From an uncultured virus (IMG/VR IMGVR_UViG_2061766007_003026) (Duplodnaviria > Heunggongvirae > Uroviricota > Caudoviricetes): a DNA stretch of 45,753 nt. Below are positions 1,277 to 25,656 of the stretch, piece after piece; the stretch's first letter is position 1, and every line of letters starts with the position of its first letter. The DNA lies in the IMG/VR virus record IMGVR_UViG_2061766007_003026; one strand, given 5' to 3'. The translations under genes were made by a program, and so were the position numbers. The notes beneath the pieces are model-generated. The model did no database searches, was not told the DNA's origin, and saw only the letters and a list, made by a program, of their open reading frames with translations.

Positions 1277-1319
1277 GTAATTTTTCCTCTGGTTTGACTG
1301 TCCGGATGCATTTCCCTAG

Positions 1320-1402
1320 CGGAGGACGAGGGACTCGAACCCCCAAGCGGTCGCCCGCGGCGGATTTCAAATCCGCTGACTTACCAATTAGCCTAGTCCT
1401 CC
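1320..1402 (-). tRNA. tRNA-Ser(TGA)
   Basis: Cloverleaf GGAGGAC/GTCCTCC, long variable arm, loop TT-TGA-AA; trailer CTA. Confidence 0.92.
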
Positions 1403-1412
1403 AAACAAACTG

Positions 1413-1598
1413 CTAGAAGTACTGGCTCCGTGAGCGGTTGCGCTTTTCCGCCTCGTTCTTCCCGCGTTCCCTGGCAATCTTCTTCAGGTCCACCCCGCAT
1501 TGCCTGGCGAAAGACCTGGCGGTCTTGTTCTGCTTTGCCCAGCGGGCGTCCTTCTGTTCCTGTGTCTCTTCTACAAATTCGTTCTTGTCTTTTCTCAT
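1413..1598 (-). CDS. Small basic hypothetical protein
   Basis: GAGGT RBS, 61-aa ORF between RNA genes. Confidence 0.6.
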   Translation of the reverse strand: MRKDKNEFVEETQEQKDARWAKQNKTARSFARQCGVDLKKIARERGKNEAEKRNRSRSQYF

Positions 1599-1778
1599 TT
1601 CGTTACCTCACCAGGTAAACTATTCCATTCTATCCAAAAGCTACCGGTACAGGATTTTCGCCTGCATCTCCCGCGGTGTGCTGTCTTCCCTGCCGGGTGG
1701 TTTACACCATTCTGCTGCCGCCGGCGTCCTAAGCACGGGCGATATTAACGCCCGCTCGTTTAGACGAACCGATTATAG

Positions 1779-1850
1779 TAGCGCTGCCGGGAATCGAACC
1801 CGAATCTACAGATTGAGAATCTGGCGAACTGGCCGTTATTCTACAGCGCC
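1779..1850 (-). tRNA. tRNA-Glu(CTC)
   Basis: Cloverleaf, loop TT-CTC-AA; trailer CTA. Confidence 0.9.
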
Positions 1851-2216
1851 ATAAAACCCCGAGTACGTATATAAAACATTACAATATGGGACAAGTGCTC
1901 GGGGCCACCGTTCCCAATTGCTGCACCTGAGCTATATAGCATGTTCCCTGGCAGTGCCTACGTCAAAGGGTCCATGCCTCTCGCAGTCCGTCCGGGAATC
2001 ACCATCGCAACATGGCTATTCCGGTCACCCGCCAACCGTTTTCTCCAAGACATATGACTTCCTTGACTTAGGAAACCAGTCCATCATGAAGAATTGCTTT
2101 TTCGATGACCTTCCGCATTCACCAGGCAGTCACCTACTTGTCCAACAGGTCAGTCACTCCCGTTCCCAGGTCGACTGTGATTCGCTACATCTTGCGGCAT
2201 GTAGCTAACCGCGATA

Positions 2217-2289
2217 AGCCAGATAAGGGACTTGAACCCCTGACCGTCTGCTTACAAAGCAGCTGCTCTACCAACTGAGCTAATCTGGC
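2217..2289 (-). tRNA. tRNA-Thr(TGT)
   Basis: Canonical cloverleaf, loop TT-TGT-AA. Confidence 0.92.
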
Positions 2290-2290
2290 G

Positions 2291-4572: not shown

Positions 4573-6546
4573 ATGAGCAAGCACTGTTGGACCTTGAAGG
4601 ATAAGTTTGAATCGTTGTTCTCCGCTGCGTTCTATCCTATGTTTTTGTCCGACACGAAGCGAGATGAAATCATCCACCGTGCTGAGGAAATTCGTGCAGT
4701 CCGCAACGACATATCGGAGATATTTTTCTCGGATATGCTCGGCTTCCAGGATATGAGCAAGTTCGAGGCGTTCAACTTCTTTAATCCGACATTCAATACA
4801 AGGCTGTCTAGTCACTACTTGAAGAAGGCAATCGAAGATGTATGGAGGGCCTATCAGCTCCGGTTCGATGCCATCCGCAAGAAGATTGAGTTCGTCAAGG
4901 TAGAAGAACTTGTACCATCGTTCTACAAGATAAATACCAAAGGGCACAAGAAAGGCGACCTTAAATCCATAGAACGGCATACCAAGAAGACAGAACTTAC
5001 GAAGGTACTGACTTGGCTTGCCCGTTACGGCAAGGATGAAACCGTCTATTGGCTTGAATCCGTCATTCCGACCGCAGTAGAAGCAAAACGGAAGTTCTAC
5101 AGAATAATCCTTGAAAAGATACACCGGTTCGGTTTCGACCGCCTCATGCGGTTAGCTCTCTCGCGACGAACTGCTGTATTTTCCGAATACGAGAAGAGGG
5201 GCAAGATTACCTTTGAGTCGCTCTCCTTCAGCGGAAGAAGCCGTATCANNNNNNNNNNTCAAATTCTACCACTTGTAGATTGTTGTAGATTTCTGTCAAC
5301 GGTCGATAGCCAAGGTGGTCACGGCAGCGGACTGAAAATCCGACTATGTAGGTTCGGTTCCTACTCCTCCCACTATGCACCATTAGCTCAGTTGGTTTTA
5401 GAGCAGATGCCTCTTAAGCATCGGGTCCAAGGTTCAAGTCCTTGATGGTGCACTAACNNNNNNNNNNTTGAAGTATCATGGGATTGGGATGACCAAGGTT
5501 ACCGTGGTGACAGCAAGAACACGTTATGTATTCCTTTCAAGTACAACAAGGCATACCACCGTTCATTAAACCGCTATTGTAACGGACGTGATACAACCTA
5601 TACTATGGTTGTTAGAGGCAAGGATATCCATGTAGTTCTCGCCCGTAACGGCTACCGCTATAAGAATACTGNNNNNNNNNNAGTCCGAGGAAAGGACATC
5701 CATGTAGTCCTCGCAAGGGACGGCTACCGCTATAAGAATACTGACGAGATTACCGAAGAAAATACCATTGGAATTGATGTAAATTCCAAGCACAACATGT
5801 TCGCATTGAGTACGGGTGAGTTCATCCCGAACGATGATGCCTTGATTGCCGACCTAGAAACCGAACTGCTCAAGATAGACCAGAAACAGAAGAACTACAA
5901 TGCCCGGTTTACCAAGGACGATGAACATGATGCGTTCAAGATTTCCAAGAAGGACAAGACTTGTATAGTGGCTATTACGAACAAATTGAACGAGTCTAAC
6001 AAGCGGACTATCGCTAACCTCTGTAAGACATTTGCTACTAAGGGAATCAAGCACATTGCAATGGAAAACCTTGACGGTTTCCAAGGGAGCAGACTCCATG
6101 CTGATGATTCAAAAGGATTTAATCTGGGAAGGTTGCATCTAAGGACTGGACTGTCCTCATTGAAGGACGAATTCATCCACATTGCGCCTCATTACGGACT
6201 ACTTGTATCGCTTGTACAGCCCGATTATACTTCGAAGATGTGTGGCGAGTGCGGTTGTATCGACGACCGGAACCGCCAGACACAAGAAGAATTTTACTGT
6301 GTTGAATGCCATCATGCGGAGAATGCCGACATTCATTCAGCCAAGAATATTAAATTCCGCCTTACCTCGACCGTGTTAAGAGGGAACCTGCTCGAAAGAG
6401 CAGGGGATAGCGGATATAGGTACTTCCAGCCGAAGAGCTTGTCCAGGTGGCAAGTAAGGACGTGCCTAGAAAAATGCCGTTGCGATGGATTGTTTAAACA
6501 GTCCGTAGAAAATCGTTCAATTCTTACGATGAGTAAGTTTGTGTAG
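4573..6546 (+). CDS. tnpB: TnpB-family RNA-guided nuclease (split by assembly gaps: 4573-5248, 5468-5671, 5682-6546)
   Basis: RuvC-I IGIDVN, RuvC-II IAMENL, YTSKMCGECG...FYCVECH zinc finger, RuvC-III NADIHSAKNI. Confidence 0.88.
5259..5302 (+). mobile_element. Right end of a second, related IS607-like element abutting tRNA-Phe
   Basis: TGTAGATTGTTGTAGATTTCTGTCAACGG resembles TGTAGATTTTAGGCAACGG at 6542-6560. Confidence 0.55.
5300..5372 (+). tRNA. tRNA-Phe(GAA) with a mismatched acceptor stem
   Basis: Loop CT-GAA-AA, D and T arms present; acceptor CGGTCGA/TCCTCCC has 3 mismatches; trailer CTA. Confidence 0.65.
5377..5452 (+). tRNA. tRNA-Lys(CTT)
   Basis: Canonical cloverleaf; trailer CTA. 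Confidence 0.92.
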
Positions 6547-7759: not shown

Positions 7760-7831
7760 GCGAGCTTAGTTTAACTGGTAGAATAGTGGACTTTTAATCC
7801 TCGGATGTGGAATCGTTCTCCGCAGCTCGCA
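7760..7831 (+). tRNA. tRNA-Lys(TTT), atypical T-loop ATCGTTC
   Basis: GCGAGCT/AGCTCGC acceptor, loop CT-TTT-AA. Confidence 0.85.
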
Positions 7832-7835: not shown

Positions 7836-7906
7836 GTACCTATATTGTAGTGGTAACAAGGCGGTCTTCCAAACCGCAATCGCCAGTTCGAACCTGGCTA
7901 GGTACT
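7836..7906 (+). tRNA. tRNA-Gly(TCC)
   Basis: Cloverleaf, U73; trailer CTA. Confidence 0.88.
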
Positions 7907-7915: not shown

Positions 7916-8000
7916 AGCTCTGTGGCGGAATTGGCAATACGCGGCGCACTCAAAATGCGTTGTCCGAAAGGACATGTGGGTTCGACTCCCACTTGAGCTA
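7916..8000 (+). tRNA. tRNA-Leu(CAA)
   Basis: Long variable arm, loop CT-CAA-AA; trailer CTA. Confidence 0.9.
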
Positions 8001-8009: not shown

Positions 8010-8093
8010 CGGCATGTGGAGTAACTGGTAGCCTCGCTAGATTCAGAGTCTAGTGGCCGAAAGGCCGTGAGGGTTCAAGTCCCTCTTTGCCGA
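8010..8093 (+). tRNA. tRNA-Leu(CAG)
   Basis: Long variable arm, loop TT-CAG-AG. Confidence 0.88.
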
Positions 8094-8135: not shown

Positions 8136-8236
8136 TATATAGAACGGCTTGGTGGAACTCGTCGCTCTATACAAAACGAATTTTAGATGTCCTCGGTGTA
8201 TGCAGAGTTCCACAATATTGCTATACCGAGGACATT
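8136..8236 (+). promoter_or_regulatory. Two-hairpin kissing-loop leader RNA upstream of a homing endonuclease
   Basis: Loop GTGGAACTC pairs with loop GAGTTCCAC; homolog at 20978-21072. Confidence 0.75.
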
Positions 8237-8252
8237 CTTTATTGAGGTTTGT

Positions 8253-9437
8253 ATGTCTGCATCAAAACCATGTAATTGTCCTAAATGTGGAGCCCATTTT
8301 GAAAGTATATCTGCTATGAATCGGCATCGCATTGCGGTGCATGGTTTAAGTAAAATTGCTCAGAAGCCGTATAGTTGGGAATGTCCGATTTGCCATATAT
8401 TATGTAAGACATCCGCAGAATTACGTCGTCACCGTCCTACTGTACATGGAAAATATTGTTACCAGAGTAAATCTAGTAATGGTAGTTCGTTGCCTACATG
8501 GGCGTGTAAATATTGTGGCATCATAGTTAATTCTCGGCGTAAATTGTATGAGCATTATAAGGAATGTATTGAAAAGGAAAAACAACCGACCGATTCACGT
8601 GGTCGAGTTATTAATTATGACGGGTTACGTAAAAGTCAAGAAACTAAAAAACAACGCAAGGCATTAGGCGTATATAAACCACGCCTCGTATCAACGAGTA
8701 CAAGAGCTAAATTACGTGATTGTAGAAAGCAATATTTAGCAACCCATCGAGTTAAATATAATTGGACTGGACCACTAAATACATTAAGTTATGCAGAGCA
8801 ATATTTTTATGATATTGTTGAGAAGCGGTGCAAATTTATTCATTGGGTAAATAATTTACGTATCAGTTATTATAAATTGGATTTTGCAAACCTTGATACT
8901 AAAGTCTATTTTGAAGTTGATGGCGAACAACATTATGATGAATATGGATTATATCATGATAAGCAGCGTACCGAACGATTAGAACAATTTGGGTGGAAAT
9001 TAATTGGCAGAGTGCGATGGAAGCTGTTTTCTCGGTTATCTGACATTGAAAAACATGCATATATTGATACACTATTGAATGCCTTTATGTCGAATGAATA
9101 TCATACGATTGACTCATTACATGATTCTCCGACAGTTATTACGTCTAAACGGCAATTACAACATGCCCAACAACTCGCACAAGCTACACTAGAAGGCCGA
9201 GTTGATAAAAATGGGCATATACTTGGTAATGCTAACAGTATGGATGAATGGGTTCGTCGGAAGAATTTAATATTAACGTGTGGTGTTGATATTTCTAAAT
9301 TTGGGTGGGTTGAAAAGGTTATACGGTGTACTGGATTAACTAAACGAATGATTGAAAATACCTTAAAGAAATTTAATAAAGAATTTGATGGTAAATATTT
9401 TAGGCGTAAATATAATCCAGTTGACTGCAAACCATAA
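8253..9437 (+). CDS. Free-standing homing endonuclease: C2H2 zinc fingers plus DUF559/Vsr-like PD-(D/E)xK domain
   Basis: Three CxxC(...H) fingers; LDF...FEVDGEQH...R...GWKL motif; AT-rich; GAGG RBS before ATG 8253. Confidence 0.8.
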   Translation: MSASKPCNCPKCGAHFESISAMNRHRIAVHGLSKIAQKPYSWECPICHILCKTSAELRRHRPTVHGKYCYQSKSSNGSSLPTWACKYCGIIVNSRRKLYEHYKECIEKEKQPTDSRGRVINYDGLRKSQETKKQRKALGVYKPRLVSTSTRAKLRDCRKQYLATHRVKYNWTGPLNTLSYAEQYFYDIVEKRCKFIHWVNNLRISYYKLDFANLDTKVYFEVDGEQHYDEYGLYHDKQRTERLEQFGWKLIGRVRWKLFSRLSDIEKHAYIDTLLNAFMSNEYHTIDSLHDSPTVITSKRQLQHAQQLAQATLEGRVDKNGHILGNANSMDEWVRRKNLILTCGVDISKFGWVEKVIRCTGLTKRMIENTLKKFNKEFDGKYFRRKYNPVDCKP

Positions 9438-9513: not shown

Positions 9514-9788
9514 CGTAGCGCGTTACCGCCGTTGTTTTCCCTTGTGCGGGAAAATCTTATCGAAACGCAAAATCCCGTGACTTATCCGGTACGGGAACCC
9601 GCCAGCACCTTACGATACCGGGAAACCCGGCACCCCGCCATATTGTACCTTAGGCGAGTCTGGAGCCTTGTAACCCTAAGGGGTGTCAGGCTGATGCTAC
9701 GTCCGGGAGCGTCCTCCCGGCTGGTCCTCAAACTTTGTCCCGTGCGTTGATTTAGCGCTCGCTTGCCGGCCTAGCAAGCCTATCAGGG
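9514..9788 (-). ncRNA. Central part of the large structured ncRNA candidate
   Basis: Overlaps 2541-2644 and (inverted) 10834-10882; shares a ~120-nt module with 16502-16641. Confidence 0.55.
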
Positions 9789-9798
9789 NNNNNNNNNN

Positions 9799-9990
9799 AG
9801 AGATATGCACTTGGTCCCGGGCTTTATTCCTCTCGCTTGACCCAGGCAACGACGTGCTACCGATTAAGCAGCAGCGGCGTAGGCGAATGCATTGTCAGCA
9901 TTTATCTTTTCGGTCCGTTTTTACGAAGCCACAGACCAACTTCGTGTGAGGTCTCCACAGTCCGATGCCTAGTCGAAACCAAGCACCCCC
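9799..9990 (-). ncRNA. ssrA: tmRNA, 5' half (allele; tag ADNAFAYAAAA)
   Basis: GGGGGTGCTTGGTTTCGAC start, resume context ATAAAT-GCT, tag ending AA-stop. Confidence 0.9.
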
Positions 9991-10007: not shown

Positions 10008-10079
10008 TCGGAGTAGCCGGATTCGAACCGACGACATTCTGCTCCCAAAGCAGACGCTCTACCAGGCTGAGCTACACTC
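10008..10079 (-). tRNA. tRNA-Pro(TGG) (first 2 nt in gap)
   Basis: Loop TT-TGG-GA, canonical arms. Confidence 0.88.
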
Positions 10080-10188
10080 NNNNNNNNNNACAGGGTAGCG
10101 TTTTTCCGATTTGCGCCAAAGTTAAACTGTAACTTCTGCCAATCACTTCATCGGGAAGCGATACATGGAACGCCTGCGCTACAAAATT

Positions 10189-11597: not shown

Positions 11598-11670
11598 TAT
11601 CCCTGTCGTGACTCGAACACAAATCTACGGTTTAGGAAACCGTGGCTCTATCCGGTTGAGCTACAAGGAC
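11598..11670 (-). tRNA. tRNA-Arg(CCT)
   Basis: Loop TT-CCT-AA; trailer CTA. Confidence 0.88.
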
Positions 11671-13880: not shown

Positions 13881-13894
13881 AAAATTCCTGTTAG

Positions 13895-14817: not shown

Positions 14818-14892
14818 TGCCCCAGACCGGGGTCGAACCGGTAACCACCACCTTCGGAGAGTGGTACTCTAATCCAATTGAGCTACCGGGGC
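14818..14892 (-). tRNA. tRNA-Arg(CCG)
   Basis: Loop CT-CCG-AA. Confidence 0.88.
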
Positions 14893-15548: not shown

Positions 15549-16022
15549 GAAAAAGAAAGTGGCGCGACTTTTTATGACGTTTGGCCCATTGTACAGTCCG
15601 CTAGCAGTGGAGTACAAGGAAATTGTCGGTTTCCATCTCGCCTTGTATAAGACGCTGTCCTTTTATGACGTTTGGACGATTGGCTTGCGCCAAGAAGCGT
15701 GTCTGGCTCCATTCCGCGTAATGTTGTCGGGGATACCGTTACTACGTGGGTTTCAACGCCACACGGCGTCCCCTGTGTCCCCGCACGGAGTAGTAGTCCG
15801 ATGGAGGAGCAGTAATGTTGTCCCCTGCCTTCGCGGACACCGGAACCACTCGAAACCGTATGTCCGTTCTACCCGTGCTGAAAGGGCGGTCCTACCGGCA
15901 GCAGGACTTGAAAATTAGTGCATGCCCGCGGTCCACCTTCATCCGCCAGTATTTAGTCACCCCGGACGTGACAATGGGCTCAGGAGCATCGGGAATGACC
16001 CGTACTCACATGCATGCAATAG

Positions 16023-16381
16023 TGGAGGTGAGGGGAGTCGAACCCCTGTCCTAAACGCCATTCCGTTTCAACCGTATCACAATCCATCGTTTTGGGCCCT
16101 GACCTGTTGCCCGGGGAGATGTATCCTTGAGGGGTCCTGGTCCAGTGTAAGATAGCCGGTCTACGACCAGTAACTCACGGCTAAATTCGGGACTTATCTA
16201 CTTGGTCCCGGGCTTTATTCATCCCACTTGGCCCGGGCAACGGCGTGCTACCGATTAAGCAGCAACGGCGTAGGCGAATGCATTGTCAGCATTTATCTTT
16301 TCGGTCCGTTTTTACGAAGCCACAGACCAACTTCGTGTGAGGTCTCCACAGTCCGATGCCCAGTCGAAACCAAGCACCCCC
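16023..16381 (-). ncRNA. ssrA: tmRNA, complete (tag ADNAFAYAVAA); 3' fragment of another allele at 15179-15225
   Basis: GGGGGTG/CACCTCC acceptor with G3:U70 and A73, T-loop TTCGACT, internal tag ORF; trailer CTA. Confidence 0.95.
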
Positions 16382-16387
16382 GAAGAG

Positions 16388-16460
16388 CTCCGGCTCGCCG
16401 GCTCGAACGGCGGACCCCATCATTACGAATGATGTGCTCTACCAACTGAGCTAAGCCGGA
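16388..16460 (-). tRNA. tRNA-Thr(CGT)
   Basis: Loop TT-CGT-AA. Confidence 0.88.
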
Positions 16461-16646
16461 AAAAGGTTCCGCTCACACACCCGGAGAGCGGAAATCCGTC
16501 CGCACCATACGATACCGGTGTTGCCCGGCACCCCGCCATATTGTACCTTAGGCAGGTCGGAACCCGTATAGCCGCTTTTTGCTACCAGGGGAGGTAACGG
16601 CGTCAGGGTGGAGCTACGTCCGGGAGCGTCCTCCCGGCTGGACTGG

Positions 16647-16820
16647 TGACACAGGCCCCGTATTTTGATGTTCGCGGGAAGTACCTGAACCTGGATGCAG
16701 AACAAGCGGCCTTGCTTGCGTCAACCCTTCTAATGATATTGGCGCATGCCCCGGTTCTTGATGTTCGAGCAGGAAGTACCTGAACCTGGATACATGTACA
16801 AGCGGCCTTGCTTGCGCCAA
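16647..16820 (-). repeat. Two tandem ~80-nt structured RNA units (family B)
   Basis: Shared core CGCAAGCAAGGCCGCTTGT...ATCCAGGTTCAGGTACTTCC...CGAACATCAA; terminal stems GGCGCA/TGCGCC vs GACGCA/TGTGTC. Confidence 0.65.
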
Positions 16821-16832
16821 AAGTTTCTGTAG

Positions 16833-16908
16833 TGTCCCGGACAGGATTCGAACCTGCGACCTCCACCTTCGGAGGGTGGCACTCTGAATCCGGCTGAGCT
16901 ACCGGGAC
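16833..16908 (-). tRNA. tRNA-Arg(CCG)
   Basis: Loop CT-CCG-AA; trailer CTA. Confidence 0.92.
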
Positions 16909-16920
16909 TTAAAATAAGAT

Positions 16921-17169
16921 GCGTACCCGGGAAGTAAGTCAACCATCAAACGAGGAACTTCGTTTGGGCACGCAAATTCGTGTACGCGGATTGGCACCAA
17001 TCATCAACCCACAACGAAGAATACGTCCGGGTACACAATAAAAACGACACTGGCGGTAAATCGGTGTTGCAGACCAAGCTTCAGATAGGAACCGCCTTGG
17101 TGTCTAAAAAGCGGGCGCGGGGAGTAAGTCACTGATGTTGGAAGTTTCAATAGGAACTCCCTTTGCGCC
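16921..17169 (-). repeat. Three ~55-nt stem-bulge-stem RNA units (family C: 16921-16973, 17046-17104, 17114-17169)
   Basis: Stem-[AC]AA-stem(GT)-TCCT...GA[CT]TT-(AC)stem, stems differ in sequence but pair. Confidence 0.6.
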
Positions 17170-17178
17170 TAAAAGTAT

Positions 17179-17461
17179 GACACAGCCGTCTCCCGCGAGA
17201 ATCACGCCGGGCCTTCCGTGACTTTCGTTAATTCCCCGTCACGGGTCGGCCCACGGGATTTCATGTTCGGCCGTTACCCTAGAGCACATACCGGAAACAG
17301 GGACTGAGTCCACCAGCTTCCGGAGACCACCTTCTCTATGCCGCCAAGTGCGTCCTAACACATGGCATCATTTTTGCTGACCCCCGTAGAGCGTCCGCCG
17401 GAAAATTATCCGGCGGCAGGAACATGCTCTCGGGCGGTTCGCCTCCCCGGGCGACTGTGTC
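17179..17461 (-). ncRNA. ~283-nt structured RNA candidate
   Basis: Closing stem GACACAGTCG/CGGCTGTGTC, multiple internal hairpins, no credible ORF. Confidence 0.5.
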
Positions 17462-17480
17462 TTTAAAGGTTTGCCGTCCC

Positions 17481-17570
17481 AATCTACGGCCGGAATCGAA
17501 CCGGCGTCTCCCGGCCTGGTTAGCCGGGCGCTCTGACGAGGCCTCGTCCACCTTGCTAAGCTACGTGGCC
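17481..17570 (-). pseudogene. tRNA-like element with a hairpin inserted in the D-loop, enlarged anticodon loop and broken acceptor
   Basis: TAGCTTAG...AGAGC, GACGAGGCCTCGTC insert, T-arm GCCGG-TTCGATT-CCGGC. Confidence 0.5.
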
Positions 17571-17694
17571 ATGGGAACGGCGGTCATTTTCTATAGGTAC
17601 CAAACGGTTTTGCTGGTGCGTCGGGGCCCTAATCCGAAAATGACTTAATAGCGCCGCGCCGGGGACGTCTCCCCGGCACTTCCGTCGCAATCAA

Positions 17695-17770
17695 CAGGAC
17701 AGAACCGGACTCGAACCGGTGTCCCGGGTTGTTTCCGCCCGAGCTCTACCTCCTGAGCTTACCCACCCAG
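17695..17770 (-). pseudogene. Degenerate tRNA-like element
   Basis: AGCTCAGGAGGTAGAGC and ACCGG-TTCGAGT-CCGGT intact; G:U-rich acceptor, 9-nt anticodon loop. Confidence 0.45.
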
Positions 17771-17793
17771 TCTTAGCGACGGCAAAATCATAG

Positions 17794-17898
17794 TTGCCAA
17801 ACCAGGACTCGAACCTGGACGCCCTTTCGCGCGAGGACCGGGGACTTGCATTCCCCTGCGTCTAACGGCATCGTCGATGCACTTTCCGCCATTTGGCA
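17794..17898 (-). tRNA. Leu-type tRNA body with GCA (Cys) anticodon and a D-loop hairpin insertion
   Basis: Perfect acceptor TGCCAAA/TTTGGCA, A73, long variable arm, GGGGA-AT-GCA-AG-TCCCC; trailer CTA. Confidence 0.7.
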
Positions 17899-17974
17899 AT
17901 GAACAATAACGCAGGTCCCCAGTGTTCCCAAAGGTGAACGTCGGAACAACCGGGGGCCTGGTTTGAAACTATAG

Positions 17975-18047
17975 TAGCGGGAGTCGGACTCGAACCGACG
18001 ACCTCGAGGTTATGGGCCTCGCGAGCTACCAACTGCTCCATCCCGCG
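17975..18047 (-). tRNA. Initiator tRNA-fMet(CAT)
   Basis: C1:U72 mismatch, CGCGGGATGGAGCAG start; trailer CTA. Confidence 0.9.
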
Positions 18048-18057
18048 ATAAATATCG

Positions 18058-18130
18058 TAGCGATGCCGGGATTCGAACCCGAGTTCCAGGAATGAAAATC
18101 CTGTGTCCTAGGCCTCTAGACGACATCGCC
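18058..18130 (-). tRNA. tRNA-Glu(TTC)
   Basis: Loop TT-TTC-AT. Confidence 0.9.
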
Positions 18131-18446
18131 ATGCGAACGGTGTGAGCGGGACGGGGGACCTCGATACAACCAAAAAGGAGAAGGGTAATGGAACTAACCC
18201 TATACATCCGCCCGTCCCGGCTCACGCCGAACTCATTAGTTAATTTCCCTTGTCTTCCTGAGCAGAAGACACCTCCCGGTTGCGAACCCGGGCGCACTCA
18301 CGTTTATGCTAAAGGTATCTCACTACGCCAAGTGCGTAGCTTCGGGCGGGAAGCCTCCCGCCGGGGTAAGATTTCGTAAAACCTTCAAAATGCGAGTGGA
18401 CTATCGTTGTCCACAACGCGCAGTTTAACCTGAACTGCAAAGGAAA

Positions 18447-18490
18447 CGCATCCGAACTGTCAATCTTCTGGGGAACCTCACGGGCTTCCC
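18447..18490 (-). promoter_or_regulatory. Hairpin + AGATTGACAGTTCGGATGCG element (second copy 21657-21700), boxB/boxA-like
   Basis: 20-nt exact repeat 3' of hairpins of unrelated sequence; this copy lies just downstream of the promoter at 18498. Confidence 0.5.
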
Positions 18491-18629
18491 GGTGTACCAA
18501 ATATAGCAATTTTCTGCGAAAACGTCAACCTGGTGGTTTTTGTTTATATCTTGGTACGATATTCTTGCTAACCAAATATAGCAAAAATCGACCCGAGTGG
18601 AGTCCTTTCTGCTAAACCTGGTCAAATAG

Positions 18630-18703
18630 AGCACTCGGAGGGACTCGAACCCCCGCATGGGGGCTTTGCAGGCCCCCGCCTTAATCCACTTGGCTACGAG
18701 TGC
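18630..18703 (-). tRNA. tRNA-Cys(GCA)
   Basis: U73, loop CT-GCA-AA; trailer CTA. Confidence 0.92.
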
Positions 18704-18709
18704 GTATAG

Positions 18710-18791
18710 TGTCGGGAACAGGACTTGAACCTGCACGAGTTTCCCCACTGGCCTCTCAGACCAGCGCGTCTACCAATTCCACCACCCCGAC
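18710..18791 (-). tRNA. tRNA-Leu(GAG)
   Basis: Long variable arm; trailer CTA. Confidence 0.92.
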
Positions 18792-18801
18792 ATATCCCGG
18801 G

Positions 18802-19239
18802 TCATCCCCGGAAAAGCTGGTACTTTCTGCTGAGTGCATGGCTCACGTCGTCCGGCAGCGGCCTAAACCATATACCCACCCTACAGTAGCCGTTGCCGTT
18901 CTCGTCGGTCGACTCCGGGGTAAGCTCGGTAAGACACGCGTCGTCTATGAAGCCGTAGTCTGCATCCTTGACAAGGCCGAGTTCCTTGGCGACTTCCTCC
19001 ACCTTCATGAGGTGGGTGAGGTTCTTCGCCTCGCACACGGTCTTCACGAACAGCCCGCGGACATACTCGTCCATCGTGGCTGAATCCAGTTCGAACTTGA
19101 CGGAGTATGAGTCGCCTTCCTTCGTCGCACTTCGGGAGATGAGGCGTGTCCAGAAACCTTCGGCGCAATGGGCTACCATCGCCGAAAGCTTACCCTTGGA
19201 CAGGTCCAGGTCCTTGCGAATTATGAAGAGTCTTCTCAT
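18802..19239 (-). CDS. pth2: Peptidyl-tRNA hydrolase, Pth2 family
   Basis: IIRKDLDLSKGKLSAMVAH, KTVC, IDDACLTEL, GIWFRP...YQLF match Pth2 motifs; GGAGGA RBS. Confidence 0.88.
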   Translation of the reverse strand: MRRLFIIRKDLDLSKGKLSAMVAHCAEGFWTRLISRSATKEGDSYSVKFELDSATMDEYVRGLFVKTVCEAKNLTHLMKVEEVAKELGLVKDADYGFIDDACLTELTPESTDENGNGYCRVGIWFRPLPDDVSHALSRKYQLFRG

Positions 19240-19258
19240 ATATCCTCCGATGTCTTAG

Positions 19259-19340
19259 TCCCGCAGGCAGGACTCGAACCTGCACACCTTTCGGCATGCG
19301 CTCCTAAGGCGCACGCGTCTACCAGTTCCGCCACTGCGGG
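19259..19340 (-). tRNA. tRNA-Leu(TAG)
   Basis: Long variable arm, loop CT-TAG-GA; trailer CTA. Confidence 0.92.
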
Positions 19341-19343
19341 ATA

Positions 19344-19414
19344 TTGGCCAACCAGGTCTCGAACCCAGCCCTGGTGACTCAAAATCACCCGTGCTACCGC
19401 TACACCATAAGCCA
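19344..19414 (-). tRNA. tRNA-Gln(TTG)
   Basis: U1:A72, loop TT-TTG-AG. Confidence 0.85.
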
Positions 19415-19418
19415 ATTA

Positions 19419-19492
19419 TGGCGACACCAAGACTCGAACTTGGAACCAACAGATTAGAAATCTGTCGCTCTAATCCATTGAGCTATGCCGTC
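19419..19492 (-). tRNA. tRNA-Arg(TCT)
   Basis: Loop TT-TCT-AA. Confidence 0.88.
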
Positions 19493-19502: not shown

Positions 19503-19578
19503 TCCCCGGAGAAGGAATCGAACCTTCAGATGTCGGCGATTTTGAGTCGCCCGCCTATGCCAGTTCGGCTACCCGGGG
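19503..19578 (-). tRNA. tRNA with CAA (Leu) anticodon but short variable region
   Basis: GGCGA-CT-CAA-AA-TCGCC; variable region only GACATCT; trailer CTA. Confidence 0.8.
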
Positions 19579-19584: not shown

Positions 19585-19656
19585 AGCGAATATCCGACAA
19601 CGATTCGGAAACTACAGCTTGGAGGGCTGTCGTGTTGCCAATTACACCATATTCGC
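19585..19656 (-). tRNA. tRNA-Gly(TCC), C33 and T-loop ATCGTTG
   Basis: GCGAATA/TATTCGC, U73, loop CC-TCC-AA. Confidence 0.8.
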
Positions 19657-19660: not shown

Positions 19661-19732
19661 TGCGGGTGGGGAATTTCGAAATCCCGACCCACGTATTAAA
19701 AGTACGTTGCTCTTCCTCTGAGCTACACCCGC
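19661..19732 (-). tRNA. tRNA-Lys(TTT)
   Basis: Loop CT-TTT-AA; trailer CTA. Confidence 0.88.
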
Positions 19733-19816: not shown

Positions 19817-19900
19817 TCGGCGATATCGGGCTCGAACCGATACGCACGCAAGTGCCCCGGATTTTAAGACCGGGTTGTCTACCTATTCCAGCAATCGCCG
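19817..19900 (-). tRNA. tRNA-Leu(TAA)
   Basis: Long variable arm, loop CT-TAA-AA. Confidence 0.88.
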
Positions 19901-19913: not shown

Positions 19914-19993
19914 TCTCGACGGCAAGACTCGGACTTGCACGCATATGCACCGGCTCCTGAAGCCGGCGGGTCTACCAGTTCCCCCACGTCGAG
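19914..19993 (-). tRNA. tRNA-Leu(CAG), T-loop TCCGAGT
   Basis: Loop TT-CAG-GA; trailer CTA. Confidence 0.85.
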
Positions 19994-19997: not shown

Positions 19998-20960
19998 TTA
20001 AATAATTCTATTAGATTTTCGCCGATGCACCACCGACTTCAACTCATCAAAATGTTCAACAGTTTTATATATTTGCTGACGAGTCAAATCAGTGGTAGCG
20101 GCCACTTTAGACACCCATCCGGGTTTAGTCAAATCAACACCACTATTGAGTATTTTATTCTTTCTGTTATTCCACTCGGCTTTGGTTAATTTTCGAACGC
20201 AATCCCAGCCTAAAACGTTTTGTTCAACACCCAGCTGACGTCTCCGTTGCTTAGCTTCTTCAAGGCGTTCTTTATGGGTTTTGTATAGCGGAACAGTTAT
20301 ATCACCGCATCCAGATAAAAATTTGTCCAACATCGCCTCAAATTCTTGCTTATGAGTCAGTATATATCCCCATTTTATCCGTAATACTAGCCAACCGTCG
20401 TTATGTAACAACTTATCCTTCTTCTCATCGCTTTTTTGCTGTTTCTCATATCTATGCAAATCACCATCGAGTTCTATACACAAGCGTTTATCTGGCCACG
20501 AAAAATCTAGGTAATAACCATGAAAGGGCAATTCGGTCTTATAGTCTACATTCTCAGTCCATCCATATTTATTGAATAACAGCCCAATTAGCCACAACTC
20601 TGGGTATGAATGCTTAACGTATTTTCTATTCTGATACGATGGAGCAATCCCTAATTCATGACGTCGTTTCATCCGTTCAGAGCATTTAGCACGAAATTCG
20701 GGTGTTTGTGTAAATCCTCGACTTCCGGGTTTATTCGGCTTTCTATTGGGGTTATGTTTACACCGTAATTCGTGATTTGCAATGCCACTCTTAGTCGTAT
20801 TCCAGGTAGTTCCACAATATTGACACGTCCGGGCAGCAATTACACATGCCACTGTTTTTCCATCAATGTGATGACAATCTAGCTTATGTTGTTGTAATTG
20901 TCGACGAGATTTTAAAATTTCTTGACAATACGGGCATTTCCATTCATAATGTAATCTCAT
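19998..20960 (-). CDS. Free-standing homing endonuclease (zinc fingers plus DUF559/Vsr-like domain); homolog of 8253..9437
   Basis: YLDF...IELDGDLH...D..L...GWLVLRIKW; shared C-terminal W..RKN.IL..GVD..K.GWV.KV domain. Confidence 0.8.
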   Translation of the reverse strand: MRLHYEWKCPYCQEILKSRRQLQQHKLDCHHIDGKTVACVIAARTCQYCGTTWNTTKSGIANHELRCKHNPNRKPNKPGSRGFTQTPEFRAKCSERMKRRHELGIAPSYQNRKYVKHSYPELWLIGLLFNKYGWTENVDYKTELPFHGYYLDFSWPDKRLCIELDGDLHRYEKQQKSDEKKDKLLHNDGWLVLRIKWGYILTHKQEFEAMLDKFLSGCGDITVPLYKTHKERLEEAKQRRRQLGVEQNVLGWDCVRKLTKAEWNNRKNKILNSGVDLTKPGWVSKVAATTDLTRQQIYKTVEHFDELKSVVHRRKSNRII

Positions 20961-20977
20961 AATAAACCCCAATAAAG

Positions 20978-21121: not shown

Positions 21122-21196
21122 AGCGAGCACCGGGGTTTGAACCCGGAAAATCTCCACCATGGCAAGGTGGCGTGTTACCAGTTACACCATGCTCGC
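21122..21196 (-). tRNA. tRNA-Gly(GCC)
   Basis: Loop TT-GCC-AT, U73. Confidence 0.88.
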
Positions 21197-21300: not shown

Positions 21301-21372
21301 TGGATACATACCGGGGTCGAACCGGTATCCCCCGGATGCGGACCGAGAATTCTACCATTGAACTAATGACCC
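21301..21372 (-). tRNA. tRNA-Ala(CGC) with bulged acceptor stem
   Basis: G3:U70, A73; GGGTCAT/ATG(T)ATCC; loop TC-CGC-AT. Confidence 0.75.
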
Positions 21373-21571: not shown

Positions 21572-21645
21572 TGGACACATATCGGGGTCGAACCGATGAC
21601 CTCCTGAGTGCAAATCAGGCGCTCTACCAACTGAGCTAATGGCCC
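21572..21645 (-). tRNA. tRNA-Ala(TGC) with bulged acceptor stem
   Basis: G3:U70; GGGCCAT/ATG(T)GTCC; loop TT-TGC-AC. Confidence 0.85.
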
Positions 21646-21847: not shown

Positions 21848-21919
21848 AGCGTCTATCCGGGCTCGAACCGGAGACAATGGAATGGAAATCCATTATGTTA
21901 CCAACTACACCATAGACGC
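21848..21919 (-). tRNA. tRNA-Gly(TCC)
   Basis: GCGTCTA/TAGACGC, loop TT-TCC-AT. Confidence 0.88.
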
Positions 21920-21923: not shown

Positions 21924-22727
21924 TTAGTCATATACATTAACAAGGGACTGGTCAGATGTAAACAATTTTCCCTGTTTACTTATATTGGAGTACACTGGAA
22001 TATATTTAATAAACCGTTTTGTTAATGCAACAACAGAGAGATTCACATCAGTCTCGCGACAGAATTGTGATATAGATGTATAATGACCAGAATGAAATCG
22101 ATTCCAAAGAACATAAGTTGTGTTACGTGTTGCCGCTTCACGCTTCTGGTACATTTCATCCGGAGTACCACATATTTTGCCATGTTTCAATGTTATCGGG
22201 CGCTTTGTGGATATAGACCATATATTTGGCCTTGCTATAGTTCGATTGAACCAATTTCTACCGGGTATCCATCTATCACCAGGATAAGAAAAGAATTGCA
22301 TGGTCTCGCCATTATCTATATTAGTATACCATTTTGAACCATAGAGCGAATTTCCCTTACCGGATTGCCTTTTTGATATCACTTTGCCATTTAGTCGAGC
22401 CAACTCAATTCGTAACTTTTCGTATTCAGTCGCACTCATACATACCTCTGGTATATCCTTTCTGGTACTCATCCGCCACAACGCATATATCATTTTACTG
22501 TAGCCAGCAGACCCAGGTTTATAAATTTTAGTCAACAGATGGTGGCAAATATAGTGTTCTTTTGCCGTTAATAAAACTTTATTCGTGGCATTATCTGAAC
22601 CACCAACCGACTTTGGCAGTATATGATGCATTTCAAAATACATTCCTGATTTATGCATTGCCCTCCTACTTACATAATCCGCTCGGGCAAGTAAGACAAT
22701 GCTCATGTATATCCGGTTATAGTTCAT
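21924..22727 (-). CDS. HNH homing endonuclease
   Basis: EMHHILPKSVGGSDNATNKVLLTAKEHYICHHLL; AT-rich; likely start MNYNRIY. Confidence 0.85.
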   Translation of the reverse strand: MNYNRIYMSIVLLARADYVSRRAMHKSGMYFEMHHILPKSVGGSDNATNKVLLTAKEHYICHHLLTKIYKPGSAGYSKMIYALWRMSTRKDIPEVCMSATEYEKLRIELARLNGKVISKRQSGKGNSLYGSKWYTNIDNGETMQFFSYPGDRWIPGRNWFNRTIARPNIWSISTKRPITLKHGKICGTPDEMYQKREAATRNTTYVLWNRFHSGHYTSISQFCRETDVNLSVVALTKRFIKYIPVYSNISKQGKLFTSDQSLVNVYD

Positions 22728-22750
22728 CCTTATCCAATATAGTATTTTTA

Positions 22751-22804
22751 TGCAAGCTGCGGAGAACGATTCCACATCCGAGGATTAAAAGTCCACTATT
22801 CTAC
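22751..22804 (-). tRNA. tRNA-Lys(TTT), 3' part; allele of 7760..7831
   Basis: Identical to 7778-7831 except one acceptor-stem base. Confidence 0.8.
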
Positions 22805-22814
22805 NNNNNNNNNN

Positions 22815-25250
22815 CTCGGCATTTACTGCGTCAAGGAGGTCATGCACGGCATCTTCCAGTTCGTCCGCATAGTCATCGGCACGGAAATACTTGAAGGAAC
22901 CATCCGGTCCGAACTTGCGGCAGAACTTCTTTACCTCAGTTTCATTCATCTTGTCCACTCCGTCGAGAGACAGGAGGATAGGCCTTGCAAGCATCGGCTT
23001 GGCTTCATCAATAGCGAACGGCTTGGCCTCTTGCCGAATCTCTTCCGGGAATGCGAACCCGAACTTTTTCATTGCGAATTCCATAGACGGCAGACGGATA
23101 TTCAGGGGAGGGACGGCAGCGTTGAGGTCAAACCCGAAGCCGTCATCTTGCGGCGGCTGTTGCGGTGCATTACCGTCATCCGTATCTGCCGGGTCTTCAA
23201 CTGGTTCCTCAGTGTCTTCATCCGCACCCTGCCCGGCATCAACTACCCGAGGTGCAACAACGATACGGTCAAGTAGCGCATTCGTCGTCTGGGTATCGTA
23301 CTTGCGTTCCATCTTGCCGTCAATAAGTTCCTCGAATACAAGGCCCTTCAGGTCATCGACCGCATCTTCCTTTGACACGACGCCTTCGCGTGTAACAAAG
23401 ACAGCGTTCTCGTCCTTGGATATACCGTTTCCATGGCTGAACCTGAACTTGGCCCCCTTCGCGATAGCCATGCTCAGGAACTCGAACAAGGTAGGGACAC
23501 GCCAGCCTGCAGGGATTGCATGCAGCACAGTCTTTGCACTGTAGAATACAAAGTTCCTATCGGCATCCAGGTCGTTCACCAGAATCCTCTGCTTGCCTTC
23601 ATTGAGGGTTTTCCAGCGAGTCTTGTCAAAGCCAAGCGGGGTAATCATCTCAAGGGCGCTGTACTCATCAACAAACACGCCGCAGTAATTGTCGTCACTG
23701 TACATGACATACTTTCCGTCCTTGTCCAGCTTGTTCTCGCCGGGGTCGATTGTGTCTGCACGCCATTGACGGTAATTATCGCATGCCTGCTGATAGGCAT
23801 GGCTCTCGTACGAATCGTAGTTGCCGGAATCGCTCATCTTGCACACGTCGGAAGACAGGTACACCTTTGCGTGGCCGTTACGGTCGATGTCAATGGATGT
23901 AAGCGGCATGAACTTGTTGATGCATACCGGGTCCGGTATAACTCGTTCGTCGTCCACTTCCCCATTATGCGGAATCTCATCCATATCGATTTCCATATCG
24001 ACCGCCGGGTGATAGACAACTCCTCCGTTGCCTACAGTGAGGCGACTTTCGGACTCATAGCGGAGACCCTTCTTCGAATGCAGGTCATCAAAACAATACC
24101 AGTCATACTCAAGAGCCTTGCGGTTGTCGGCAACCCCGGTGCTCTCACGGATATCCGGGACCGATATATAGGATATGGGGTCAAGCATCCATTCGCGGTT
24201 CCCGATTACCTCCGTGCGGTATGCGCGGCCATCCCTCCCGTCAACGAACTTGCGCTCACGCGTACTGCACTTTGCGTTCACCGCATGGGTTATCTTGTCT
24301 GCTAGTTTCTTCGCCCAGCTAAGGCATACCTTGTTGTCCTTCTGGCGGGCGCGTTTCATTACGGACTCAACGTGGTTGTAGTCCCTCTTGCTGAACGGGG
24401 GACACAGCTTGTAGAACGGGCCGCCCATGAGTTCAGACAGTTCCCTTTCGGAATACTTGTTGTCGCCCTTGCGTTCGTCGATATTGTCGTGAGAGTGGTT
24501 CCAGCGGTTGTTCACGTGCATGAGACGGCCATCGGGACCGATATCGATGCCGAGCATGGACTCGCCATACAGCGGGTCGTCTTCCGTCATCGTCTCGAAG
24601 CCGGGCAGTACCGCAAGATACAGCTTCACCATGGAAATCCTGGAGTTGCCCTTGGAATCAGTCTTTCGGCTGTAGGAATACGCCTTGAACATGTGCTTGG
24701 AACCGAGGTGGCACCAGTTATGCGGGGCGGTGTACTGGTAATACTTGCTGGCCGTGACAAACGAGTCCAGCCAGATTACCTTGTATCTACGCGGGCCGTA
24801 CTTGATTCTGCCGAGCTCGCGCTTCAGTTCCTTCCAGTTACCGGACACGGTACTGCCAAAGCGGTCGACGAGGTCCTTGAACGAGAGTTCCTTGCCGTCG
24901 ATTGCGATGTGGCGGGTAAACTCGGTAAAGTGCGCGATAGAGATGATACGTACGAAGTCGCGGAGGTCTGCAAGCTGGCGGAAGTCCTCGTCGCCTGTAC
25001 CGAAGAGGAGCTCCCCGTATGCGATACGGGCAAGCCCCGGGGCGAACTTAATCTTGCACTGGCCGTCACGGAAGAACTGCCTGCGGAGTTCCTCGTAACA
25101 TGCACGGGTCCATGACGATATATTCCTGTTGAACGCAATCTCGGTATAGATGCGGCGGATTTCGTTCACGTTCGGAAGGGAAAGAAGCACCTTCTTGGTG
25201 TATCGGTATGCGTCGCCCTCGCTTCCCGGGCCAAGTTCCTTTTCACTCAT
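22815..25250 (-). CDS. Large protein, N-terminal domain paralogous to 28582..30033, degenerate FISUMP-like domain (C-terminus in gap)
   Basis: KFAPGLARIAYGEL, NNRWNH, GG.FY.LCPP shared; FVDGRDGRAYRTEVIGNREWM and IPAGWRVPT resemble the Fib_succ_major domain. Confidence 0.75.
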
Positions 25251-25325
25251 GATAGCCTTGATAGTTATGGTTTAACGATATAGAAATGGGTAGGCACTTA
25301 TAGGCCTACCCCAAATATAGCAAAA

Positions 25326-25580
25326 AGTTGGCGTTCATGCGCAACATCTGTGCAGGCCAGGTTTTGCACGCACCGCGACGGAGGCGACACCGTCGACCGC
25401 ACCGCAAGCCGTTTAGACTCCTCGCGGAGGGCCACAGCACAGGACAGCATCAAGCCAAGCGCAGCGCCAGGCCCGACCCGCACGTTTCACGGAGCCCTAG
25501 GTGGCTCTCCTGTCCCCAGTTTCGAACCTAGGAACATTCGAATGGCCAACTCCGCGTGATGCGGCGCATGTACGCCAACT
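25326..25580 (-). ncRNA. ~255-nt structured RNA candidate directly downstream of tRNA-Gly(CCC)
   Basis: Terminal inverted repeat AGTTGGCGT(A)CATGCGC/GCGCATG(A)ACGCCAACT; GC-rich internal hairpins. Confidence 0.55.
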
Positions 25581-25583
25581 TAG

Positions 25584-25656
25584 AGCGGGAAAGGGGACTC
25601 GGACCCCCGACATCCACCTTGGGAAGGTGGCGCTCTACCAACTGAGCTATTCCCGC
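25584..25656 (-). tRNA. tRNA-Gly(CCC)
   Basis: Loop TT-CCC-AA; promoter at 25665; trailer CTA. Confidence 0.9.

Follow-up and report, generated by a model that had tools for sequence, protein, structure and literature searches.

A CTA trailer in place of CCA behind the tRNA and tmRNA genes of a tRNA-rich phage

Genes of the array and their 3' trailers

The stretch of DNA analyzed here (45,753 nucleotides of the uncultured-virus record IMG/VR IMGVR_UViG_2061766007_003026, referred to as the window) comes from a large phage and carries, between positions 1319 and 25656, an array of transfer RNA (tRNA) genes together with a transfer-messenger RNA (tmRNA) gene. ARAGORN predicts 38 genes in this region, 37 for tRNAs and one for tmRNA. 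At positions 74-76, directly behind the discriminator base N73, CCA is found in none of these 38 genes, whereas CTA is found in 23 (22 tRNAs and the tmRNA). This pattern is real and highly non-random: CTA occupies 0.95% of the trinucleotide positions on that strand, and the binomial probability of at least 23 occurrences in 38 genes is 4e-37. A preliminary description of the window had claimed that the genes carry near-CCA ends of the form CTA instead of CCA, and had named beforehand an automated count as the test for enrichment. Both the ends and their enrichment were confirmed by this count.

ARAGORN stretches the end of a gene through whatever part of N-C-C-A is present, as a check of the pairing agreed, and N73 was therefore located from the pairing of the acceptor stem. 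The Rfam tRNA model ends at N73 and gives the same N73 as the pairing, except for tRNA-Gln, tRNA-Arg(tct) and a tRNA-Pro (10008-10081) that is interrupted by a run of N. Rfam yielded 39 tRNA matches of at least 33.8 bits, of which two (5300-5372 and 17481-17570) are absent from the ARAGORN predictions, in addition to the tmRNA and two tmRNA-like fragments. The acceptor stems of both tRNA-Ala genes are poor under both framings (5/7 pairs); with a one-base shift, made by eye, their trailers read A73-TTA and A73-GTA. The assembly of the window is gapped, with 38 runs of N, 37 of which are 10 N each. The genes, with their strand in brackets, are the following.

1320-1402 (-), tRNA-Ser(tga): G73 then CTA
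1779-1850 (-), tRNA-Glu(ctc): A73 then CTA
2217-2289 (-), tRNA-Thr(tgt): T73 then TAT
5300-5372 (+), tRNA, Rfam only, 41.3 bits: A73 then CTA
5377-5452 (+), tRNA-Lys(ctt): A73 then CTA
7760-7831 (+), tRNA-Lys(ttt): A73 then CTT; 4-base spacer to the next tRNA
7836-7906 (+), tRNA-Gly(tcc): T73 then CTA
7916-8000 (+), tRNA-Leu(caa): A73 then CTA
8010-8093 (+), tRNA-Leu(cag): A73 then CGC
10008-10081 (-), tRNA-Pro(tgg), 5' end lost to a run of N: A73 then TGA (Rfam framing)
11598-11670 (-), tRNA-Arg(cct): A73 then CTA
13446-13534 (-), tRNA-Ser(gct): T73 then CTA
13546-13618 (-), tRNA-Arg(cct): A73 then CTA
13635-13707 (-), tRNA-His(gtg): extra G at -1; C73 then CTA
13721-13796 (-), tRNA-Arg(acg): A73 then CTA
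13807-13880 (-), tRNA-Met(cat): A73 then CTA
13895-13971 (-), tRNA-Ser(gga): A73 then CTA
14612-14685 (-), tRNA-Pro(tgg): A73 then CTA
14818-14892 (-), tRNA-Arg(ccg): A73 then GAT
15176-15313 (-), tmRNA-like fragment, 29.7 bits, spanning a run of N: tmRNA 3' end repeated, then CTA (15178-15176)
16020-16381 (-), tmRNA, tag ADNAFAYAVAA: A73 at 16023, CTA in place of the CCA of the Rfam model
16388-16460 (-), tRNA-Thr(cgt): G73 then CTC
16833-16908 (-), tRNA-Arg(ccg): A73 then CTA
17481-17570 (-), weak tRNA match, Rfam only, 33.8 bits: T73 then GGG
17975-18047 (-), tRNA-Met(cat): A73 then CTA
18058-18130 (-), tRNA-Glu(ttc): A73 then CGA (CTA in the relative G001, see below)
18630-18703 (-), tRNA-Cys(gca): T73 then CTA
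18710-18791 (-), tRNA-Leu(gag): A73 then CTA; spacer to tRNA-Cys CTATAC
19259-19340 (-), tRNA-Leu(tag): A73 then CTA
19344-19414 (-), tRNA-Gln(ttg): A73 then TAT, the entire spacer to the next tRNA (Rfam framing)
19419-19492 (-), tRNA-Arg(tct): A73 then TAA; spacer TAAT (Rfam framing)
19503-19578 (-), tRNA-Leu(caa): A73 then CTA
19585-19656 (-), tRNA-Gly(tcc): T73 then TAT
19661-19732 (-), tRNA-Lys(ttt): A73 then CTA; spacer CTAT
19817-19900 (-), tRNA-Leu(taa): A73 then TAG
19914-19993 (-), tRNA-Leu(cag): A73 then CTA
21122-21196 (-), tRNA-Gly(gcc): T73 then TAT
21302-21372 (-), tRNA-Ala(cgc), acceptor 5/7 pairs: ATT (both programs), A73-TTA with the shift
21573-21645 (-), tRNA-Ala(tgc), acceptor 5/7 pairs: AGT (both programs), A73-GTA with the shift
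21848-21919 (-), tRNA-Gly(tcc): T73 then TAA, then a run of N
25584-25656 (-), tRNA-Gly(ccc): T73 then CTA; acceptor stem and trailer match host tRNA-Gly(gcc)

In the 38 ARAGORN genes, the triplets other than CTA are TAT (three times) and CTT, CGC, CTC, CGA, GAA, GAT, ATC, AAT, TAG, ATT, AGT and TAA (once each). Position 74 is C in 27/38 and T in 5/38; position 75 is T in 27, A in 8, G in 3 and C in none; and position 76 is A in 26/38. The bias stops there, position 77 being A in 13, T in 13, C in 8 and G in 4. With the Rfam framing, N73 is followed by CTA in 23/39 tRNAs, and in 25/41 genes once the tmRNA (16020-16022) and the second tmRNA 3' end (15176-15178) are added; seven further tRNAs have TA directly 3' of N73 (TAT 4, TAA 2, TAG 1). 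Where tandem genes are packed most closely, only 3-6 bases separate them (TAT, TAAT, CTAT, CTATAC). The preliminary description had counted CTA by hand behind 30 of 48 ends. Its share of about 60% is borne out, but the absolute total lies above every automated count. The individual ends that it had placed, at 1320, 1779, 5372, 5452, 7906, 8000, 16023, 17975, 18630 and 25584, as well as six in a row from 13446 to 13895, are all correct.

Two hairpins on the minus strand had also been described as stems ending in A-CCA. In the first (13973-14040), GGGAAC..GGCGAT pairs with ATCGCC..GTTCCC, and ACCAC and then the first base of tRNA-Ser(gga) follow; this hairpin, which lies directly upstream of the tRNA gene, looks by its letters like a mini acceptor-stem mimic. 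The 3' arm of the second (14518-14605) ends in CACCACCA followed by TTTTT, and this one is terminator-like, most simply read as a putative intrinsic terminator. The two tmRNA-like matches, both on the minus strand (15176-15313, 29.7 bits, and 9695-9983, 27.2 bits), are weak and each spans a run of N; they could have arisen by partial duplication or through assembly.

Most long frames of the window have no match to any family in Pfam or PHROGs. Those that do include homing-type endonucleases, a TnpB-like transposase, an NAD-dependent ligase and an exonuclease. The endonuclease frames lie among the tRNA genes, at 8187-9437 (+), 19998-20972 (-) and 21924-22775 (-) (DUF559 with zinc fingers, HNH), and the TnpB/Cas12f-like transposase frame also lies within the tRNA region, at 5605-6546 (+) (Pfam Cas12f1-like_TNB, PHROGs transposase). 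The NAD-dependent DNA ligase (26195-28519, -) appears as two frames, one with the adenylation and OB domains and one with the BRCT domain, separated by runs of N at 27104-27319; these are probably one gene split by assembly gaps. At the very start of the window (1-69, -) there is a weak match to HEARO RNA, which at 27 bits is far under the cut-off.

A relative, the putative hosts and other arrays

The closest relative found is a 75.5-kb viral contig (G001), 27% complete and 96% identical to the window, the identity along long segments of the array being 94-100%; GenBank phages gave only tRNA-sized matches (blastn with a 7.3-kb query). Among the 34 scorable genes of G001, a count that leaves out two permuted-tmRNA calls, 22 are followed by CTA, 4 by CGA and none by CCA. 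C74 is present in 26/34 and C75 is absent, as it is from all 72 genes of the window and G001 taken together. In seven orthologues the trailer is swapped between the two phages, and the six compared bases past position 76 differ as well (window/G001: Glu-ttc CGA/CTA, Met CTA/CGA, tmRNA CTA/CGA, Ser-tga CTA/CGA, Thr-cgt CTC/CGA, Thr-tgt TAT/CTA, Pro-tgg CTA/GTA). Five of the seven swaps stay within C-T/G-A or C-T-C, position 75 alternating between T and G and never being C. The motif has thus been re-established in differing contexts.

The tRNA bodies are themselves diverse. Compared with the best of 75 host tRNAs, the phage tRNAs are 65-89% identical, and their best identity among each other has a median of 0.70, exceeding 0.75 for one pair only, the two tRNA-Arg(ccg). 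Hitchhiking on recent duplicates is ruled out by this diversity, which means that the three trailer bases are not carried by such duplicates. The earlier view that drift from CCA is unlikely is supported both by the diversity of the bodies and by the maintenance of the motif before unrelated downstream sequence in G001.

Several observations point to Fibrobacter-family bacteria of the rumen as the likely hosts. The phage protein encoded at 28582-30078 (-) has a C-terminal Fib_succ_major domain, of which many paralogues (31-49% identity) are present in 25/26 family genomes. Sampled words of the window are also present, to the extent of 5-30%, in ruminant-gut RNA libraries (19 runs from 10 studies). 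Contigs from four of these runs, 90-99% alike, cover parts of 16022-19416; some of them stop at 16022, which is C74 of the tmRNA, and show adapter-like letters past this point, though this stretch is common to host tmRNAs and the libraries possibly contain DNA. A protein-based search for host loci returned no match.

Fibrobacter genomes were reached through a published species primer. In G002, a record titled Fibrobacter succinogenes metagenome-assembled genome, 44 tRNAs were scored, with the trailers CGA (12), CTA (5), CTC (5), CTT (3), CTG (2) and CCA (2), and with C74 in 29/44. G078, a family genome with a CTA-ended tmRNA, contributed 31 distinct tRNAs (the 30 best loci of 57 matches), with CTA (8), CTC (5), CGA (4), CTG (2) and CCA (2), and with C74 in 21/31. 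The background is 0.8-0.95% for CTA and about 1.5% for CGA. The host genes with a full CCA are few and atypical (L041 and L063 in G002, L132 in G078). One is a second tRNA-Phe gene, located on a contig of 3.4 kb, another a tRNA-Gln whose acceptor (AGGAGAC) is unusual, and the others form an adjacent Ile-Ala pair. A foreign origin is conceivable for them, as is a different type of operon. Host A76 runs into an A-rich stretch (76-79), probably the front of terminators, whereas A76 of the phage is discrete. The idea that A76 is the mere start of an A-run therefore fits the hosts but not the phage, where position 77 is unbiased. Pairing of the trailer with the 5' leader was also considered and rejected, as the letters of leaders and trailers do not fit.

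The tmRNA genes of the family behave similarly. In 29 of the 30 family loci that best match the phage tmRNA end, a set biased by this choice toward CTA, the trailers are CTA (14), CGA (12), CTG (4), CTC (1) and ATA (1); permuted-tmRNA calls are left out of this tally, and two loci carry two or three copies. Twenty further family tmRNAs, in which the match to the phage stops at A73, have GAA (9), TAA (4), TAT (3) or others (4). CCA does not follow the tmRNA gene in any of these 49 loci (29 + 20), whereas it is found in 17 of the 30 best tmRNA loci phylum-wide. The tandem tmRNA copies are found at L109 (genome G018), where they end in CTG, CTG and CTA, and at L099 (G165).

In the family, N73 is thus typically followed by a C that may be absent, next by G or T and finally by A, and the phage shows this habit in its sharpest form. 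Some genes share even more: tRNA-Gly has the same acceptor stem and trailer in phage and host (GCGGGAA/TTCCCGC-T-CTA), and CTA is also common to the initiator-like tRNA-Met and to tmRNA. Of the notion that host tRNA genes might use CTA as often as those of the phage, one part holds, since C74 followed by a base other than C and an enrichment of CTA and CGA are shared; the phage-like level of CTA is not. CUA had been proposed to be a selected signal of the phage. Selection, as opposed to drift, is supported, but the signal is not peculiar to the phage because hosts share a looser form of it.

A wider sample, small at about ten genomes and eight arrays, was also scored. The 24-base 3' end of tmRNA is too widely conserved to single out related phages, being found in at least 120 viral stretches of many lineages, and the broad viral sample consists of 80 loci fetched with it. 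In L222 (record G230; 185 kb, 91% complete, with a PF01743 gene in the record), all 41 tRNAs have C74, with the trailers CGA (13), CCA (7), CCG (4), CGG (3), CTA (3) and others. All 14 scored tRNAs of L193 (record G231) also have C74: CAA (6), CAT (4), CCA (2), CTG (1) and CTA (1). The typical non-C base at position 75 of these unrelated arrays is thus G in L222 and A in L193. Five other viral arrays are all or nearly all CCA, for instance L179 (23/23), whose record (74% complete) has no PF01743 match. Among bacteria, C74 is present in 13/13 sampled tRNAs of Chlorobaculum (CCA in 4), and in 2/11 of a Lachnospiraceae genome with a canonical RNase Z (CCA in none); two phylum genomes with a mid-scoring RNase Z-like match (148-152 bits) both have TTT after tmRNA. 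These few samples fit the view that C74 trailers occur where the canonical RNase Z is missing.

Processing enzymes and a probable role of the trailer

The phage genes encode C74 and A76 of the CCA end, and never C75. Because a tRNA with a CUA end cannot work, the trailer must come off and a CCA-adding enzyme must complete the end. About 5 kb beyond the array, G001 has a 418-amino-acid frame that matches PF01743 (102-105 bits) and whose best NCBIfam family is CCA tRNA nucleotidyltransferase, at 216.9 bits and under the 290-bit cut-off; a search for relatives of this protein returned G001 alone. PF01743 homologues were found in 3/4 Fibrobacter genomes, their best NCBIfam families being CCA nucleotidyltransferases, all under cut-off. 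The earlier suggestion that CCA is added post-transcriptionally by a nucleotidyltransferase agrees with the absence of encoded CCA (0/38) and with the CCA-adding-type gene of G001. As to the enzymes that it had named for a search, a nucleotidyltransferase was found in G001 and in the hosts, but neither this nor an RNase Z among the frames of the window.

The canonical RNase Z (TIGR02651) was not detected above cut-off in any of 4 Fibrobacter and 30 phylum genomes, whereas it was present in the controls G228 and G229 (Lachnospiraceae and Blastocatellia genomes). Fibrobacter has instead a 296-amino-acid metallo-beta-lactamase protein, with HxHxDH kept, which gives near full-length matches to rice RNase ZS1 (PDB 7xgt; 134 bits, E 4.5e-38) and T. 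maritima tRNase Z (PDB 1ww1; 55 bits, E 6.4e-14). Among the RNase Z families, the best E-value is that of the T. maritima-type model TIGR02650, the score being 55.6 bits versus a cut-off of 507. By sequence, this protein is a predicted Thermotoga/plant-type (TM-type) RNase Z. Its orthologues (53-100% identity) are present in 39/41 family genomes and in 3/30 genomes of the phylum sample, all three of which also belong to the family sample. The proposal that an RNase Z acts on these ends thus has to be narrowed, the hosts having the predicted TM-type and, as far as detected, no canonical enzyme. RNase PH was above cut-off in 4/4 Fibrobacter genomes; in G002 (contig 73, 2554-3351) a tRNA-Met gene precedes the start of its gene by about 50 bases. 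In G078, the RNase P RNA belongs to type A and retains the consensus CGGGUAGG stretch, which holds the GGU loop.

What is known of these enzymes bears on the choice of bases. C74 is described as the strongest blocking base for tRNase Z, an effect to which C or U at the next position adds (PMC3161902), and B. subtilis RNase Z is reported to require U at the first trailer position (PMC11649783). CUA would thus be nearly as unfavourable a trailer as a canonical RNase Z could meet, in keeping with the absence of this enzyme from the hosts. The TM-type RNase Z is not blocked by CCA, and it has been proposed to accommodate the many chloroplast tRNA genes that encode C74 or a partial CCA (PMC3161902). 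The T. maritima enzyme cleaves both CCA and GUG precursors, the site moving with the bases (PMC1540738). CCA-adding enzymes fill in only the missing part of partial CCA ends, and in P. acnes the cut falls between the two C's (PMC3848588). Finally, C74 and C75 base-pair with the two G's in the L15 loop of RNase P, and cleavage is slowed more than 100-fold when the substrate has G74 (PMC1874595).

Taken together, these findings lead us to consider it reasonably probable that CTA is a lineage-typical partial-CCA trailer, which is removed before the CCA is completed enzymatically. RNase P would split the tight array, C74 (and U75, through a G-U wobble) pairing with its GGU loop. The trailer would most likely be removed by the host TM-type RNase Z, cutting after N73 or after C74, with exonucleases such as RNase PH as an alternative or as helpers. 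The host nucleotidyltransferase, or the copy that the phage lineage has near its array, would then add CCA or CA. The motif with its statistics, its occurrence in host genomes and the enzymes found or missing are observations, whereas we infer the identity of the cutting enzyme, the place of its cut and the RNase P pairing.

A number of points weigh against this interpretation. Avoidance of C75 is not explained by it, because a TM-type enzyme could process an encoded CCA, as in T. maritima, and so in principle could RNase PH, and no account is given of the phage preference for T75 where G002 prefers G. Trailers vary more in the hosts than in the phage (11% and 26% CTA versus about 60%), about one-third of the host tRNAs lack C74, and so do all 20 family tmRNAs whose phage match stopped at A73, so that the host habit alone is insufficient to account for the uniformity of the phage. 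In Chlorobaculum, C74 is found in 13/13 sampled tRNAs and no RNase Z of either type was detected. A constant link between C74 retention and a TM-type RNase Z is ruled out by this genome, the former not depending on the latter. Neither a CCA-adding enzyme nor an RNase Z was recognized in the window (20 frames searched with Pfam, 43 with PHROGs), and the phage CCA-adding gene is known solely from G001, itself 27% complete. Contigs from RNA libraries cannot show RNA ends. The link to the hosts, lastly, depends on one Fib_succ_major domain, the ruminant-gut RNA libraries and the shared trailer habit.

We considered the possibility that CUA is the phage's own signal, read by its own CCA-adding enzyme and perhaps by an unrecognized nuclease, or that it shields the tRNAs from a host or defence nuclease. 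CTA is indeed much more frequent in the phages (23/38 and 22/34) than in the hosts (5/44 and 8/31), and the best host matches with the same anticodon often have other trailers (Ser-tga AAA, Pro-tgg TAC, Leu-gag GAA, Met CGA, His CTT, Cys CTC). The discrete A76 of the phage, as opposed to the host A76 that blends into an A-rich run, and the CCA-adding-type gene about 5 kb from the array of G001 are in line with this as well. Yet CTA and CGA are far over chance in host tRNA and tmRNA genes, which indicates that the host machinery already copes with such ends; the window frames include no phage nuclease of a tRNA-processing type (Pfam, PHROGs); CGA stands beside CTA in G001; and an unsampled, mostly-CTA host would explain the uniformity equally well. 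Phage-specific readings are not needed, and we regard this one as unlikely.

Removal might also be purely exonucleolytic, RNase P splitting the array, RNase PH and similar enzymes trimming the ends and the CCA-adding enzyme repairing them without any RNase Z, an alternative to which we likewise assign a low probability. The presence of RNase PH in all four Fibrobacter genomes, the GGU stretch kept in host RNase P RNA, array spacers of only 3-6 bases, the Chlorobaculum tRNAs and the ability of CCA-adding enzymes to complete partial ends (PMC3848588) are all compatible with it. However, encoded CCA suits exonucleases at least equally well, as described for E. coli and B. subtilis (PMC7479834), and because the exonuclease route works with encoded CCA, the total absence of C75 is left unexplained. 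Moreover, in the genomes sampled, the TM-type RNase Z tracks the family that has lost tmRNA-encoded CCA, being found in 39/41 family genomes versus 0/27 phylum genomes outside the family sample.

Two other explanations appear very improbable. A signal at the level of the DNA, serving recombination or homing between tRNA cassettes or the avoidance of integrases that recognize tRNA-CCA, would be consistent with the homing-type endonuclease frames and with the mosaic differences between window and G001, which start right behind tRNA 3' ends; but the motif also stands behind dispersed single tRNA and tmRNA genes of the hosts, followed by A-rich runs and, it seems, by terminators, and no repeat or site is seen past the three bases. 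That the trailers have no function and are undecayed remnants of captured host tRNA genes or of array copying, as the tRNA-Gly, tRNA-Met and tmRNA ends common to phage and host might suggest, is already disfavoured, as three flanking bases are kept next to bodies that are 65-89% like those of the host and about 70% like each other, C75 is absent from 72 genes while position 77 onward is unbiased, and the motif persists in genes whose six compared downstream bases are not the same in the window and in G001.

A more speculative extension of the partial-CCA interpretation, which we find rather doubtful, is that base 75 acts as a register switch for the TM-type RNase Z. C74 would keep the pairing with RNase P, while a non-C at position 75 would move the cut of the TM-type enzyme to before base 75 instead of after base 76. 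In the Fibrobacter family, the arrival of this enzyme would have gone with the loss of encoded CCA, leaving the selected code C74, G/U75, A76, which phages of these bacteria would have taken over and sharpened to CUA; with a CCA-adding enzyme of their own, they would control how some 40 tRNAs mature. The bases at 74-76 behind a tRNA gene would in that case be a signature of the 3' processing of a lineage and a clue to the hosts of phages.

If the partial-CCA interpretation is right, a bacterial family and its phages keep two-thirds of the CCA end and strictly avoid the middle C, which current models of 3' processing do not predict, and they offer a natural test of how positions 74-76 are recognized by the TM-type RNase Z, by RNase P and by the CCA-adding enzyme. 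Should the association between trailer and nuclease hold widely, trailers could reveal processing pathways and help to match tRNA-rich phages to hosts. Since unrelated phage arrays show C74 throughout with a typical base 75 of their own, the phenomenon may be general and overlooked.

Comparison with known systems

In phage T4, some tRNAs lack an encoded CCA, and their maturation relies on RNase BN/Z of E. coli together with the CCA-adding enzyme. Only a few T4 genes are affected, and we know of no uniform near-CCA motif in this phage. The window resembles T4 in having a phage tRNA cluster whose 3' ends would be trimmed and then rebuilt by a nucleotidyltransferase. It differs from the E. coli type, with its encoded CCA and exonuclease trimming, by the absence of encoded CCA (0/38). 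E. coli RNase Z/BN is reported to remove ends such as CA, CU and CCU (PMC7479834). Like the large phages of Al-Shayeb et al. 2020 (PMC7162821), the phage has a big array, with 37-39 tRNAs plus a tmRNA within 25 kb, and, in G001, a CCA-adding-type gene; the bases after the discriminator are not discussed in the relevant passages of that paper.

In B. subtilis, CCA can likewise be unencoded; the trailer is removed endonucleolytically at the discriminator before CCA is added, much as proposed here, and UA can stand close to N73 (U74 A75 in trnSL-Ala1) (PMC1874595, PMC11649783). There, however, U comes first, occupies a pocket of the enzyme and is needed for cleavage, while C in its place causes a block, whereas here C74 is present in 27/38 genes and no canonical RNase Z was detected in the hosts. 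The host enzyme is by sequence of the same type as that of T. maritima (1ww1, 55 bits; TIGR02650, best E-value), a species that, unlike the present system, encodes the full CCA in 45 tRNAs and has no need to rebuild it, according to PMC1540738 and PMC7479834. CCA is encoded in 0/38 phage genes, and in 2/44 and 2/31 host genes.

In the passages reached by our literature searches, CTA or CGA trailers are not described in bacteria or phages, and Ardell and Hou 2016 (PMC5143459) nowhere mentions Fibrobacter, C74 or "partial". The closest parallel is with chloroplasts, in which part of the CCA, mainly C74, is encoded, a short RNase Z of the TM-type is present and a nucleotidyltransferase completes the end (as described by Fan et al. 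2011, PMC3161902). C74 is likewise found here in 27/38 genes of the window, 26/34 of G001, 29/44 of G002 and 21/31 of G078, and the best match of the host protein among solved structures is a plant enzyme, RNase ZS1. The present system differs from that of chloroplasts in that it concerns a bacterial family and a phage, that its motif is more sharply defined (C74, T or G at 75, A76, with C75 essentially never) and that tmRNA genes are included. The trailer is best classed with the partial-CCA tRNA genes, as a new and unusually strict form of them, for which chloroplasts are the known case and to which a bacterial family and its phage can now be added.

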